64,000 bases of DNA from Promethearchaeota archaeon (GCA_030599585.1 JAUVNS010000006.1:32001-96000), one strand, 5' to 3'. Positions 57,429 to 62,410 are shown, counted from the stretch's first letter. The notes: generated by a model not told the origin, from the letters alone. Translations and numbers: made by a program.

Positions 57429-58718
57429 TTATCCCTCTAATAAATGAAATACTACAATTGGTATTAAATTTCCTTCAAGGGATACTCGCTCATTATTGGC
57501 ACGATTTACCAAATTATTTGCCATACTATTAATCGACTGTTCAGCAGAATCGAGATCGAACAATTTTCTATATTTTGGATCATCTGGATTTGATAATATT
57601 TTCCTTTGCCATTTCAAACCTAATGCATTTGCCTGTAATTGTAGCCCTGCTAACGCCATTCCAGCCTCAACTTCGGCCCAATACTTAAGATTCATAACTC
57701 TGTGCATTAATCCCGTACAAGGCTTTTTTCGATCAATACATAATAATATGGCATAATTAGAGAAACTAATATCAAACTCCTTTTCAATCTCAGTTCTAAA
57801 AGTCTCAGAGCTAAATTTTTGTATAAAATGGTCGTATGTTATGGCTCCATTAACCTTAATCCATCTATTCAACGCAGAATACCCGACTGGATTATAATGG
57901 TATGATCCATTTGGGACATTAGCAAGATCCCGTACATAAACTAGTGGATATACTGCATATCCCGCACATCCTGATGCATGCACACGACCGTAACCATTTT
58001 TCTCTAAAACATCACGGTTTCCATGAGTCGCATGATCTGTTTCTCCTTGACAAGCCCAGAGTAGTTGAGAGATTTGATGTAAATTTGTATAGTTTGGTGC
58101 TTTTTCATCAACCAGATTAAAAATAACATCGTCTAGTGGAATACCTTTATACTTATTCTCATAGATTGCACGGTTCTTGTAACAAGCTGGAGTGTCAAGT
58201 AAGATAGTACCCACCTCTACTTTTTTTTGAAGAGGTTCTGCAGTATCTTCTACTAATGCTGCCCTATCTCTCTCTCGAACTGCTACCGAATATAAAAAGG
58301 TATAATTTTGGTTCATTAAATTGTTAACGAGTTTATTATATTTTTTAGGTGCTCTTGCTCGTTGTGATACACCAAGCCCAATACTATCCATTTTTAATGA
58401 GAGATACTGCCATGTAATCCCTACCCGAATTAAATCCTCAAATTCAATAGATTCCTTCCAAACTAATTCGGGATATAGCTCCATAGTAAATTTTGTTTTT
58501 TCTTTATCAGTTAATCGATCCAAACCATCACTATTATATTTATATATCCCTCCGGTATAATCGTCCCCCTCAGGTAATACAATAAATAGAGAATTTGAAG
58601 GTGCTGCTTGAAATGTAGAATTACATACTTCCTTAATAACAGATAATTGCAACACACGCCCTTCACCTGAGCAATCTTTACGCCTTGCCAAACTCTCTTG
58701 AAGACTCACTTTAAGCAC
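57429..58718 (-). CDS. Nitroreductase-superfamily (SagB/ThcOx-like) protein with two tandem domains
   Basis: SLQESLARRK, GIYKY and QYLSL...GLG, then ISQLLWACQG, RVHAS...Y, GSYHYNP and EAG....LQLQANALGL. Confidence 0.7.
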   Translation of the reverse strand: MLKVSLQESLARRKDCSGEGRVLQLSVIKEVCNSTFQAAPSNSLFIVLPEGDDYTGGIYKYNSDGLDRLTDKEKTKFTMELYPELVWKESIEFEDLIRVGITWQYLSLKMDSIGLGVSQRARAPKKYNKLVNNLMNQNYTFLYSVAVRERDRAALVEDTAEPLQKKVEVGTILLDTPACYKNRAIYENKYKGIPLDDVIFNLVDEKAPNYTNLHQISQLLWACQGETDHATHGNRDVLEKNGYGRVHASGCAGYAVYPLVYVRDLANVPNGSYHYNPVGYSALNRWIKVNGAITYDHFIQKFSSETFRTEIEKEFDISFSNYAILLCIDRKKPCTGLMHRVMNLKYWAEVEAGMALAGLQLQANALGLKWQRKILSNPDDPKYRKLFDLDSAEQSINSMANNLVNRANNERVSLEGNLIPIVVFHLLEG

Positions 58719-58818: not shown

Positions 58819-59907
58819 TTATTTTTGGTTTACCAAGTATTCGTTCATTTCAACGAAAGAGCTTGTTCGGATGATGGCTGCTTTGAGAAATTGAAACCCT
58901 ATGTCGTAGGTTGACCCGTCTCCACCGATGTGGATAACATATGGCACATCACCTTTGTATAATCCCTTGGCTTTTAAGATTTTATAGGTTGTGCTTATCC
59001 CGTCTGCAACAGTCGCACCTGATTCAAATAAATGGTGAATCCAAGGAACTTTCCACGAGCCTACAAAATCTTTGGAAGTAGAGACCTCAGCACAACTGGT
59101 ATTATTTACGTATATAATATTGTTTCCAGCGATAGCAGAGGCTACAGTTGCCATCTGATTCAATACCATTCCTGCTCCACATCCAGGACAAAGTCCATGT
59201 CCGGGGTGCAGATGAGTTTGTGGTTTTAATGTCCTTCTATTAACCTTATAAAAGTCTACAGGTTTTTCAGCTCCAAATTGTTCAATAAGTCCTTTTAATT
59301 TGAGATTTCGTTGTTCTGTAAAATATATTATCTGGTCAATTTCTTTTTCCATAAATCTTGGTTTAAACAAGTGCTTGAATTTACCCATTGACTTAAGGTA
59401 TTCTACGAACTTTTCTTTATCAATATCTAAACCGCGATAGTAAGAAAATGTTGGTATTCCGTCTTTAACTCTTATGGTATAAAGAGGCCAATATCCACAA
59501 TCAGTAGCTAATTTTGAGATACTTGCCGCATCACCAGCATCGTGACGCCATCCTCGCATGCAATCTGAATAGGATTGAATGAAAGCAGACCCATTTGATT
59601 TTAGAGCATCAGCAACTTTTCCCATGAAATCTGCGGGGTAAGCAGGATTAGCCGTAGCTAAAAATAGAGATTTTGTACCAAAGAAAGCAAAAGGAGTTAC
59701 CAGATCTTGCTTAACACCGATTTTTCCGGGTATTTTTTCACCCCCCGGACCAGTCGTTGTTGAAGCGTACGGTGGAGTTGCTCCTGATTCCTGAATACCT
59801 GTATTCATAAAAGCTTCGTTATCATAGTTAAGAAACAATACATTAGTCTTAGAAGTTCTTGCGAGAATGTCTTCAAATACGATCACATTTCTTTCTGGTT
59901 TTGACAT
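58819..59907 (-). CDS. porB: Pyruvate/2-oxoacid:ferredoxin oxidoreductase beta subunit, circularly permuted
   Basis: YDNEAFMNTGIQ.S.ATP lies near the N-terminus, while PGHGLCPGCG, TSC and GGDGSTYDIGFQ lie in the C-terminal part. ATG at 59907 follows SD GAGGTGG. Confidence 0.9.
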   Translation of the reverse strand: MSKPERNVIVFEDILARTSKTNVLFLNYDNEAFMNTGIQESGATPPYASTTTGPGGEKIPGKIGVKQDLVTPFAFFGTKSLFLATANPAYPADFMGKVADALKSNGSAFIQSYSDCMRGWRHDAGDAASISKLATDCGYWPLYTIRVKDGIPTFSYYRGLDIDKEKFVEYLKSMGKFKHLFKPRFMEKEIDQIIYFTEQRNLKLKGLIEQFGAEKPVDFYKVNRRTLKPQTHLHPGHGLCPGCGAGMVLNQMATVASAIAGNNIIYVNNTSCAEVSTSKDFVGSWKVPWIHHLFESGATVADGISTTYKILKAKGLYKGDVPYVIHIGGDGSTYDIGFQFLKAAIIRTSSFVEMNEYLVNQK

Positions 59908-59908
59908 T

Positions 59909-61132
59909 TTACATATCCACCTCATGAATTTTATCTTTGCTTTCTCTAACACCTAGATATGTGTAGAGTTGTCCTTTCATGTCGTTCACTGATTTCATCT
60001 TCCTTTTAGTGACATCGAATTCGTCTCGCGTGACATCTCTACCACCTAATCCGACAATAAAGCTTCTAAATATAGTATTAAGTGGATATAATGCTGTTGC
60101 GATTGAGGTTGAAAATGGTGGTAGAAGATTGTTCAACGAATCAGATTTCTCTAAAATGATTAATTTTTCAATGTTGTGTTCTTGTACAATTTTTTGTAAC
60201 TCTTCATAAGGGAATGGTCTGTAAGCTCTGATTTTGATTAATCCTATATCTTTATTTTTAGTCATCCAACTAATAATGTTTCCACACATCGAACCCATGG
60301 TAATAAATGCAGTTTTTGAGGAATTATCTAAATTATAGGTTTCAATTAAGTTATAATGGCGACCAGTTGCTTTTCCGAAATCATCAAAAGATTGTTTCAT
60401 TACATCTAACACGGATTTTTTGGCGATATCAAGGCCCATTCTTCCCTCCATAAAAAAGCCTGGCGTGACAAGTCCACCCCAGACTCCTGGACGTTCAGGT
60501 GTGATTGTATGACGAGGTTTTTTTGGTGTTAAATTACGTACGATTTCATCGGGAGTTAACCATAATTTCTGAACTGAATGAGAAATTATAAAGCCATCGT
60601 GAACAAACATAGTTGGGAATAATGAATTGTCAGATATCATTACAGATAAAATTGAGGCATCATATGTTTCTTGGACATTTTCTGACACAATGCAGTTCCA
60701 CCCATAATCGGTTATTACATACTCCCAGCTATTCCAGATAGATATATTTGGGGAGTTGAAAGCACGGGCGGAGATCATCATCGTTAATGGGACTCGCCAG
60801 CCTACAGGCATAGGTAAAGCTTCCGACATCAATAAGTAGCCTTGAGACGCAGTTGCTGTAAATGTTCTAGCACCTGCTGCACAAGCAGCAGTTGAATAAC
60901 TCATAGCTGCTAATTCCGATTCGACATTAACGAATGCTGCTTTCAACCTTCCTTGATGAACCACATCGGATAATCCCTCAACAGACTGCGTTTGAGGCGT
61001 AATCGGGAAAGCACATACAACATCGGGATCCGTTTGAGTGACCCCTCCTGCTACGGCGTAATTACCAATCATTGCAGTTTCAATTGGTTCTTTAATCTCC
61101 TTAAAAAATAATTTCATTGGTTCTACTGACAT
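59909..61132 (-). CDS. porA: Pyruvate/2-oxoacid:ferredoxin oxidoreductase alpha subunit
   Basis: GNYAVA, AFPITPQT, VESE, RTFTATASQG, DGFIISH and GLGGRDV. ATG at 61132 follows GGAGGT. Confidence 0.93.
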   Translation of the reverse strand: MSVEPMKLFFKEIKEPIETAMIGNYAVAGGVTQTDPDVVCAFPITPQTQSVEGLSDVVHQGRLKAAFVNVESELAAMSYSTAACAAGARTFTATASQGYLLMSEALPMPVGWRVPLTMMISARAFNSPNISIWNSWEYVITDYGWNCIVSENVQETYDASILSVMISDNSLFPTMFVHDGFIISHSVQKLWLTPDEIVRNLTPKKPRHTITPERPGVWGGLVTPGFFMEGRMGLDIAKKSVLDVMKQSFDDFGKATGRHYNLIETYNLDNSSKTAFITMGSMCGNIISWMTKNKDIGLIKIRAYRPFPYEELQKIVQEHNIEKLIILEKSDSLNNLLPPFSTSIATALYPLNTIFRSFIVGLGGRDVTRDEFDVTKRKMKSVNDMKGQLYTYLGVRESKDKIHEVDM

Positions 61133-61133
61133 T

Positions 61134-62129
61134 TTAATTACCTCCTTCTTCTGGTGATGCACAAGCGGCAGGACCTTGTTTCGGTCGTTTACTTATGGCT
61201 TGAACGGGACAAATATTTAAACAGTTTTGACAAGCTTTACAGTGAAAGACATCGATTCCAGACATATGGTATTTCCCGTCATCGCCTAATTTTCTTAAAG
61301 TAGCAAAATCGGGGCATATAAACCAACATTGCGCACAATTAGTGCATGTTTCTTCATCCCATATTATTTCCCATTCACCCCACGACCCGGTATTTACTTG
61401 GTCGCTTCCAACAGGGATAATCTCTTCATCGCAATACCAAACACCGGCTTTATCTAAGTCTTTATATCCTGGCAACCCTAGAGATACTTGTTGCCATGGT
61501 ATTTTACTGTCCACTGTGAAATCTGGCTCGATTCCCATATCATAAATACATGTTTCTTCAATTGCTTGTTTAATCGCATGAATATTTTTTCCAGCAATTT
61601 CTCCTTTAAATCGCTTCATTATCGCATCAGATAATTCTTCAAGCGTAAATAGATTTGACACACGAATTAAAGCTCCCAATATAATAGTATTGGTAATATT
61701 TCTTCCTAAAATATCGAGAGCGATTCGAGTTGCATCTATAGTCGCAATATTTATATCCTTACGTTTAACTGCATCTTGAATCGTTAATTGATCCATCTCT
61801 GTATTGACAATTAACCAACCTCCTTTTGGGATACCTGCAGTCACATCAACTTCTGTTAGCAACGATGGATCTAAAACTGAAACAAAATGAGGTCCATATA
61901 CTTGTTCGTTTGATCTAACTAGATCAGAGTTCGCAGAGAGTCTTACATAACTTTCAGTGGGGCTTCCCATACGTTCTGCGCCAAATTTTGGTTGACAAAC
62001 ACCGTAACCATAGAAAGCTTCCACGCAGAGATTTGAAGCAGTTACACCTCCTTGCCCCCCACGGGCATGGAATCTAAGATTTATCGTATAATCATTTAAG
62101 ATTTCTTTAATGTGTTCTGTAGTTAACAT
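61134..62129 (-). CDS. Pyruvate/2-oxoacid:ferredoxin oxidoreductase gamma-delta fusion subunit
   Basis: Gamma part: RFHARGGQGGVTAS, FGAERMGSP, IDATRIA. Delta part: NTGSW plus CTNCAQCWFICP and CKACQNCLNICP (2x[4Fe-4S]). Confidence 0.92.
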   Translation of the reverse strand: MLTTEHIKEILNDYTINLRFHARGGQGGVTASNLCVEAFYGYGVCQPKFGAERMGSPTESYVRLSANSDLVRSNEQVYGPHFVSVLDPSLLTEVDVTAGIPKGGWLIVNTEMDQLTIQDAVKRKDINIATIDATRIALDILGRNITNTIILGALIRVSNLFTLEELSDAIMKRFKGEIAGKNIHAIKQAIEETCIYDMGIEPDFTVDSKIPWQQVSLGLPGYKDLDKAGVWYCDEEIIPVGSDQVNTGSWGEWEIIWDEETCTNCAQCWFICPDFATLRKLGDDGKYHMSGIDVFHCKACQNCLNICPVQAISKRPKQGPAACASPEEGGN

Positions 62130-62410
62130 TTGAATTTTCACTTTTTTTTTTCAAAAAATCGAATTGTAATAAGACTATTATTTCTCCATAATAAAGTTTA
62201 TTCCATTTGAATCATAAGCTACTAATTTGTGCTGAAATGATGAACTATTTAGGATATGAGTCTTTTTCTAATATAATTGTGCAAAAGGTGTTTTATTAAC
62301 TGTCAAAAAATACTGATGGTAAAAATCGTTCTGATGCGATTAACACCCCCAACGAGCAAAAATTAGATAGTTTTGGGATAAATGCACAAGATGTTGAAAA
62401 TAACATTAAG

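Follow-up and report, generated by a model that had tools for sequence, protein, structure and literature searches.

Genomic localization of a permuted porB gene

Analysis of a 64,000-nucleotide stretch of DNA from a Loki-type Asgard archaeon (Promethearchaeota; GCA_030599585.1, JAUVNS010000006.1:32001-96000; this whole stretch is called the window below, and positions are counted from its first letter) revealed a gene on the minus strand, at 58819-59907, whose product resembles the PorB-type beta subunit of pyruvate/2-oxoacid:ferredoxin oxidoreductases (OFORs), with the two halves of the subunit in swapped order. Proteins of this kind are annotated as "hypothetical protein" by NCBI and are placed among OFOR beta subunits by JGI. 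A preliminary description of this DNA, made from the sequence alone, had proposed a functional natural permutant that is cut inside the motif binding thiamine diphosphate (ThDP). The gene stands last in an operon of three genes, which comprises the following features:

61134-62141, minus strand: fused gamma-delta subunit, first gene of the operon; 335 amino acids, comprising a POR domain and, after it, a 2x[4Fe-4S] ferredoxin domain
59909-61132, minus strand: alpha subunit; 407 amino acids from the ATG at 61132, with the POR_N (pyrimidine-binding) domain PF01855 and the PFOR_II domain PF17147
59917-59923, minus strand: GAGGTGG, a Shine-Dalgarno-like site read from the sequence, 9 nucleotides 5' of the beta ATG and within the end of the alpha gene
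58819-59907, minus strand: permuted PorB-type beta subunit; 362 amino acids plus stop codon, start codon ATG at 59907

The start chosen for the beta gene agrees with the family alignment. A single base separates it from the stop codon of the alpha gene (TAA, 59909-59911); this spacing and the gene's own Shine-Dalgarno site, both pointed out earlier, can be read directly in the sequence. The start of the alpha subunit, MS(V/I)EPM, is kept in 21 relatives and lies 1 base from the gamma-delta stop codon. In the gamma-delta protein, Pfam PF01558 was recognized at residues 28-195 and Fer4 families at residues 259-316. The order gamma-delta, alpha, beta was found at 28 of 29 near loci and at 12 of 15 loci chosen across the class (Lokiarchaeia in the GTDB sense, including metagenome-assembled genomes [MAGs] labelled Helarchaeota), and the fusion of gamma and delta is kept in relatives. 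The alpha subunit is 64 to 94% identical within the class and only 32 to 36% identical to canonical alpha subunits.

The two halves of PorB in swapped order

Comparison of the beta protein with the NCBIfam PorB profile NF008819 (300 positions) placed residues 20-190 on profile positions 118-289 and residues 223-352 on positions 4-122. The same arrangement was obtained with the beta subunit of the Methanosarcina acetivorans pyruvate:ferredoxin oxidoreductase (PFOR; Protein Data Bank [PDB] entry 9bt4_C), in which query residues 23-195 matched chain residues 119-284 and query residues 228-347 matched chain residues 5-115 (E 3.5e-47). Whether taken whole or in halves, as the preliminary description had recommended, the protein matched PorB-type profiles in swapped order, and the hits were non-overlapping in both comparisons. 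Pfam PF02775 (TPP_enzyme_C) was recognized at residues 18-111 only, with 24 bits against a threshold of 21.9.

Because the halves match PorB in swapped order, the GDG...N motif for ThDP is divided between the two chain ends. GDG occupies residues 329-331, 32 residues from the C-terminus, and YDNE occupies residues 28-31, 27 residues from the N-terminus; both motif halves are present, they are non-contiguous in the chain, and they are expected to lie close together in space. The cysteines predicted to hold the proximal [4Fe-4S] cluster are C116, C240, C243, and C272. In the order of the chain, the gene is divided as follows:

59851-59907, minus strand: N-terminal head, residues 1-19, with the consensus M...E.NII..EDLL.R and no canonical PorB counterpart at this place
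59323-59850, minus strand: ancestral C-terminal half, residues 20-195, with the strand and YDNE (N30, ligand of Mg and diphosphate), MNTGIQ, and C116 (59560-59562)
59227-59322, minus strand: linker, residues 196-227, between the ancestral C-terminus and the ancestral N-terminus, with a conserved GAEKP.D.Y element
58864-59226, minus strand: ancestral N-terminal half, residues 228-348, with CPGC (C240, C243), TSC (C272), GGDG (58915-58926; D330, Mg ligand), and the following helix
58822-58863, minus strand: C-terminal tail, residues 349-362, SSF.EMNEYL..., which lies past the canonical break point and is conserved in the family

The end of the head overlaps the canonical helix after GDG, and I9 of the head is present in at least 90% of the sequences. 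In the linker, L207 and Y220 are invariant, and F211 is present in at least 90% of the sequences. The position reported earlier for GGDG (58926-58915) is exact. That of HPGHGLCPGCG was one base off, the motif lying at 59208-59176, and 59826-59815 spans YDNE alone, the full YDNEAFMNTGIQ extending to 59791.

Structural models of the beta subunit and its complex with alpha

An AlphaFold2 model of the beta subunit, generated on the family alignment, reached a predicted template modeling score (pTM) of 0.88 and a mean predicted local distance difference test score (pLDDT) of 82. The linker region was modelled as a helix (187-211) and a strand (212-221) with pLDDT of 86-92, and the head as a strand (6-10) and a helix (11-15) with pLDDT of 78-96. 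Strands 23-29 and 323-329 are those at which the motif halves should meet. Searches with Foldseek and VIA-align matched only PFOR and oxalate oxidoreductase beta domains, each over about half of the chain (Foldseek TM 0.39-0.48; best VIA-align Z 11.5, with a root mean square deviation of 3.5 Å over 176 residues aligned to 1b0p). Both programs keep the sequence order and aligned only half of the chain; half-chain matches are the expected signature of a permutant.

The alpha subunit and the permuted beta subunit were modelled as a complex; the preliminary description had suggested a model of alpha/beta/gamma-delta. The pair passed, with an ipSAE of 0.80 versus 0.00 for the best of 3 controls; the mark applied is reached by 58 of 80 solved complexes and by 2 of 110 mismatched pairs. 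Three runs shared at least 97% of contacts, and the partner pLDDT was at least 86. On the beta side, the predicted interface with alpha (residues 262-316 and 339-358) is formed by the helix that follows GDG and by the new tail, in which residues 351, 355, and 357-358 touch alpha. Since PFOR and oxalate oxidoreductase complexes of this kind have been solved, the pass may reflect memory and shows likeness rather than proven binding.

Proposed function and expression of the enzyme

We propose that the gene specifies the beta subunit, binding ThDP and the proximal [4Fe-4S] cluster, of a pyruvate/2-oxoacid:ferredoxin oxidoreductase encoded by three genes (fused gamma-delta, alpha, beta), and that the pyrophosphate-binding (PP) domain of this subunit is circularly permuted. 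The chain begins at the strand with the Asn of GDG...N and runs through the ancestral C-terminal half. The structured 32-residue linker then leads into the ancestral N-terminal half, which ends just past GDG and its helix. In the folded protein, strands 23-29 and 323-329 would lie in one sheet, where D330 and N30 would jointly bind Mg-ThDP again, and C240, C243, C272, and C116 would hold the cluster. The permuted beta subunit is predicted to pair with its own divergent alpha subunit. The most likely substrate of the enzyme is pyruvate or a closely similar 2-oxoacid, which would be oxidatively decarboxylated to acyl-CoA with reduction of ferredoxin. The enzyme would represent a third, class-specific OFOR beside the two canonical Por/Vor-type operons of the same genome.

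The corresponding locus of Promethearchaeum syntrophicum MK-D1 consists of a fused gamma-delta gene (336 amino acids), an alpha gene (408 amino acids), and the permuted beta gene (362 amino acids), followed by a histone-fold gene. In the published MK-D1 data, DSAG12_00810, 00809, and 00808 are the only set having a gamma gene with both COG1014 and COG1144, and their expression values are 314, 372, and 286 reads per kilobase per million (RPKM), respectively (PMC7015854, Supplementary Table 3). DSAG12_00807 is named "DNA-binding protein HMf-1" (PMC7015854). The DSAG12_00808-00810 operon is listed as the pyruvate:ferredoxin oxidoreductase of MK-D1 by annotation, and the permutation is unmentioned (PMC7015854, Supplementary Table 4). 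The permuted operon of MK-D1 appears to be DSAG12_00808-00810 and to be transcribed.

A functional enzyme that acts on another 2-oxoacid (branched-chain, 2-oxobutyrate, aromatic, or oxalate-like) or works mainly in the reductive direction is a serious possibility, to which we give somewhat less than an even chance. Two canonical Por/Vor-type operons are retained in the genome, together with three Kor-type beta genes, so the paralogues probably differ in substrate. The low identity to canonical alphas (32 to 36%) concerns the subunit that bears most of the substrate-contacting residues. Profiles of PorB, VorB, and the oxalate oxidoreductase beta subunit match at similar levels, and canonical NTGIQR reads NTGIQE here, with E40 nearly invariant. 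Pyruvate is favored, on the other hand, by the top profile and the top solved relative, which are both PorB/PFOR, and by the assignment of the operon to pyruvate by Imachi et al., which was made by annotation only.

Phylogeny and origin of the permutation

For phylogenetic analysis, the halves were re-joined in canonical order by script and aligned with 64 canonical beta subunits. The permuted proteins formed one clade, with a Shimodaira-Hasegawa-like approximate likelihood ratio test (SH-aLRT) support of 100 and a stem that measures about 1.1 substitutions per site, and the result was the same with and without a site-mixture model. The nearest canonical sequences were PorB proteins of Altiarchaeales and Bathyarchaeia (39 to 48% identity), and the two canonical PorBs of the genome itself, encoded on contigs C4 and C9, grouped elsewhere in the tree. 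On the basis of this placement, a recent copy of a Loki canonical PorB was rejected as the source of the gene. The alpha subunit is equally distant (32 to 36%) from both, and hence no donor can be named. The long-stem beta clade and the divergent alpha subunit indicate that the whole operon is an old, separate OFOR lineage. The permutation is read as having arisen once, before the class diversified.

Alignment of the permuted protein by hidden Markov model (HMM) to the canonical GDG...NTG region extended the C-terminus through ...IRTSSFV and started the N-terminus from SKTNVLF.... Both ends cover the same approximately 4 to 6 canonical columns (ER-GHDF), as they do profile positions 118-122, and the overlap is short. 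Shared columns at both ends are what duplication with trimming predicts, and fission followed by fusion does not predict them. Duplication with trimming is also the commonly accepted route to natural circular permutants. The preliminary description had based this origin on the tripeptide RTS at both new ends. RTS is indeed present at both ends in this sequence, but the N-terminal copy reads R-E/D-G-K in other members; with only the Arg common to the family, the tripeptide match is largely coincidence. The repeat was therefore rejected as family-wide evidence of duplication, being peculiar to this genome.

Among the best 150 of 1281 hits of an exhaustive HMMER search against 1.84 billion representatives (50% identity), no tandem or split intermediate was present. 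The two hits with unusual alignment ranges (P0202 and P0237) are alpha-beta fusions or fragments with canonical beta. Tandem duplication and trimming, as proposed earlier, is likely but unproven as the origin, and weakly supported. The short overlap, the unconserved RTS, and the lack of a tandem or split form among these hits speak for a fission of porB followed by re-fusion in reversed order, or for some other rearrangement, which we consider unlikely but by no means negligible in view of the alignment of both ends to the same columns.

Conservation, distribution, and weight of the evidence

Alignment of 57 family members, down to 53% identity, revealed the invariant residues N27-E31, C116, C240, C243, C272, G329-D330-G331, and R347. 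All four cluster cysteines and both halves of the ThDP motif, which had been described as kept, are included in this set. Selection was analyzed on 21 ungapped orthologous coding sequences. The closest pairs gave omega values of 0.074-0.105, and the median was 0.06; by part, omega was 0.15 for the head (1-19), 0.05 for the ancestral C-terminal half, 0.11 for the linker (196-227), and 0.12 for the tail (349-362). These results indicate that the permuted gene is kept by purifying selection.

A pseudogene was rejected because of the invariant cofactor ligands and the low omega. We likewise regard it as very improbable that the gene is a paralogue in decay or without catalytic activity, such as a structural or regulatory subunit that has lost ThDP binding. 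Such a paralogue would fit the loss of the operon from some complete genomes and the in-frame stops in a few relatives. It is opposed by the invariance of all cofactor ligands over the 57 sequences, by omega of about 0.06, and by the transcription of the MK-D1 orthologue. Furthermore, one conserved hairpin insert is common to four of the five copies with a stop, and the two of them that were compared show purifying selection on both sides of it. The fifth (G123), whose stop is a TAG, shows no insert at that site.

A word-indexed search of 5.8 billion proteins yielded more than 120 protein clusters of 356-375 residues, collinear with the permuted protein at 53 to 95% identity and all from Loki-type Asgard archaea. 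A survey covered 400 genomes of the phylum; 130 of the 160 in the window's class and 1 of the 239 outside it gave a full-length collinear match (E < 1e-100). The best 150 of the 1281 HMMER hits contained one further full-length collinear representative, from a MAG labelled Helarchaeota (54% identity); the others among them were fragments or canonical betas matched in two stretches. The swapped order is present in the complete chromosomes of P. syntrophicum MK-D1, Candidatus Lokiarchaeum ossiferum B35, and Candidatus Harpocratesius repetitus; the class takes in both cultured Asgard archaea. That two porB fragments were joined by faulty assembly or binning is practically out of the question, since independent assemblies from many studies, the three closed chromosomes among them, have the identical junction, and the linker is conserved and under selection. 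The natural origin of the permutant proposed in the preliminary description is borne out by this conservation across genomes.

The single match outside the class lies on a short contig of 2.8 kb (L049, G075:C23, 2801 bp) in a MAG of another Asgard class; it is 86% identical to the window's family and is therefore probably mis-binned. Loki-type operons at 86 to 93% identity were observed on this contig and on DATKTW010000155.1 (L059), from a MAG labelled "Nanopelagicaceae bacterium", and both are probably mis-binned. NCBI labels of Hermod-, Hod-, Thor-, and Odinarchaeota, and that of the one "Nanopelagicaceae bacterium", stand on contigs 79 to 93% identical to the window. We read these labels as submitter labels or mis-binning and not as true spread. 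The permuted beta subunit is a clean single-origin marker of one class. The earlier suggestion of a lineage marker holds for this class, and not for Asgard archaea as a whole.

Thirty genomes of the class were without a match. Three of the six genomes of family f1 that are at least 98% complete were checked. In G207, a contig opens with the alpha gene, so an assembly gap is indicated, and in G270 the alpha gene is present with no beta match. The third, G267, is taken up below.

As a whole, the observations are best explained by a permuted, functional OFOR beta subunit of a separate, class-specific lineage with a single origin, a reading that we consider well supported and quite probable. The permuted subunit is very probably functional, as had been proposed: this is suggested by the invariant catalytic residues, omega of about 0.06-0.08, the conserved operon, the alpha-beta model, and transcription in MK-D1. 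The following points weigh against this reading. The NF008819 score of 207.6 bits is far under the PorB equivalog cut-off of 405, in part because a linear profile cannot span the swap. The DSAG12 locus tags are tied to the permuted gene by gene architecture and neighbors, not by sequence look-up. Finally, G267, a 100% complete genome of the same genus, has neither the permuted beta gene nor the alpha gene, which is a true loss and makes the operon common but dispensable.

Neighboring genes and variants of the operon

A 429-amino-acid open reading frame directly downstream of the beta gene (57432-58718, minus strand) was rejected as part of the oxidoreductase; it has no Pfam match, and its position here is conserved in the closest relatives only (83 to 91% identical). 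Besides the permuted beta gene, the genome (G000) contains two canonical PorB/VorB-type beta genes, at C4:51467-52351 and C9:30425-31291, and three weaker, Kor-type OFOR beta genes on contigs C24, C45, and C26 (set L001-L007).

In G279 and G231, the permuted beta gene is unlinked from the alpha and gamma-delta genes. In G231, they lie on contigs C94 and C275. In the single-contig genome G279, the beta gene (L044, C1:1502548-1503600) is located approximately 540 kb from C1:2045967-2047169. At L027:424-2523 (G258:C34; same as L080, JBHLLM010000034.1), one open frame of 715 amino acids contains residues 2-327 of alpha and residues 20-358 of the permuted beta, with a short joint in place of the alpha end and the beta head. 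Either a deletion fused alpha to beta naturally, or the frame reflects an error of assembly.

A hairpin insert in the permuted porB of relatives

An insert of 30 or 31 nucleotides between MNTG and (I)QESG was found in exactly 4 of 161 class genomes (G159, G163, G273, and G274), which belong to three genera of the window's family; it is absent from the window's gene. Its positions are as follows:

L047:4113-4142, insert in G163
L048:3032-3061, insert in G274
L055, approximately 181-210, insert in G273
L056:169-199, insert in G159
L215-L218:1501-1557, also recorded for the insert

The insert opens with an in-frame TGA in three of the genomes, and the frame is shifted in the fourth. It forms a hairpin of 9 bp with at least three double-sided compensatory changes. 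Between G163 and G274, the proportions of synonymous (pS) and nonsynonymous (pN) differences are 0.76-0.81 (saturated) and 0.13-0.16, respectively, on both sides of the insert, and the insert itself differs at 4 of 30 bases. It is single-copy in both genomes that were searched with its sequence, and a repeated mobile element was rejected on account of the one copy per genome. A pattern scan of JGI metagenome contigs yielded no further copies.

Archaeal bulge-helix-bulge introns have two 3-nucleotide bulges with a 4-bp helix between them, and their cleavage restores the mature sequence. A bulge-helix-bulge structure can be drawn for the insert, with a CUGG helix (3 to 4 bp), a 3-nucleotide AA/N bulge, the hairpin, a return strand of 3 to 4 bp, and an NN/U bulge (the slash marks the drawn cleavage). 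With the cut drawn behind the second base of the bulge, precisely the insert is lost and Gly-Ile-Gln is regained in each of the four genomes. Weak points of the drawing are the weak outer helix and the minimum-energy folds, which differ in register. The insert is a candidate splicing-endonuclease mini-intron in a protein-coding mRNA, or else a case of recoding or a pseudogene. A recent preprint on Asgard tRNA introns leaves mRNA introns unmentioned.

A more far-reaching view would make the permuted enzyme the main OFOR of Lokiarchaeia. Termini at the ThDP-Mg site would give it a property that canonical OFORs lack, such as a gate on the loading or exchange of the cofactor, a changed sensitivity to oxygen, or control over assembly, and would hence explain its class-wide retention; some lineages would also carry a spliced mini-intron at the active-site loop. 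We regard this combination as speculative and improbable.

Comparison with known systems

Full-text literature searches joining circular permutation with ferredoxin oxidoreductase, oxoacid, PFOR, thiamine, or Asgard found no description of a permuted OFOR beta subunit, in line with the preliminary description, which knew of none. New in the present analysis are the locus-tag and expression link to MK-D1, the evidence on assembly gap versus true loss, the failure of the RTS repeat, the constraint on head, linker, and tail, and the hairpin insert. OFORs hold a central place in the metabolism, based on amino acid fermentation and hydrogen production, that has been proposed for the archaeal ancestor of eukaryotes. 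Of the three Por-type enzymes in cultured Asgard archaea, the one used as "the PFOR" in the MK-D1 metabolic map has an undescribed rearranged cofactor-binding subunit. Owing to the permuted order, NCBI pipelines call the protein hypothetical, and automated metabolic reconstructions therefore under-count OFORs in these genomes. The family also provides a rare natural experiment on how well the ThDP fold withstands being cut within its own signature motif.

The PorB of the four-subunit archaeal PFOR (9bt4_C, NF008819) shares with the permuted beta subunit the elements of the PP fold, the GDG and (Y)DNE ligands, the four cysteines, and an operon with alpha, gamma, and delta. In contrast to it, the order here is swapped at the helix-strand junction inside GDG...N. 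A structured linker of 32 residues, a new head of 19 residues, and a tail of 14 residues are present, gamma and delta are fused, and the score lies below the family cut-off.

The second-best solved relative is the oxalate oxidoreductase beta subunit of Moorella thermoacetica (PDB entries 5c4i, 5exd, and 5exe; E 5.5e-43), in which query residues 230-347 match chain residues 14-127 and query residues 22-187 match chain residues 130-290. This protein differs in having the canonical order and in acting on oxalate without CoA; nothing in the permuted subunit points to oxalate.

The nearest canonical relative is the Altiarchaeales PorB P0127 (RLI86919.1-like), a sister of the permuted clade (SH-aLRT 93, 48% identity) that shares GGDGSTYDIG.QF and is also interrupted beside YDNE. 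It differs from the permuted beta in its canonical order, in an interruption that is a LAGLIDADG intein, and in separate gamma and delta genes. In this PorB (L219:4136-6694), the intein comprises approximately 547 amino acids between ...DFTYV and CYDNEAY, 1 residue before YDNE and approximately 10 to 25 residues from the permutation break. We see no mechanistic link between this intein and the permutation.

For ThDP enzymes, the only "circular permutation" discussed in the literature found concerns the whole-domain orders PP-PYR and PYR-PP (bioRxiv 10.1101/2021.03.21.436335); split-gene transketolases are a further natural rearrangement of ThDP-binding modules (PMC7661550). These cases move or split whole domains and leave GDG...N contiguous, whereas the permuted PorB is cut within a single PP domain, in the very motif.

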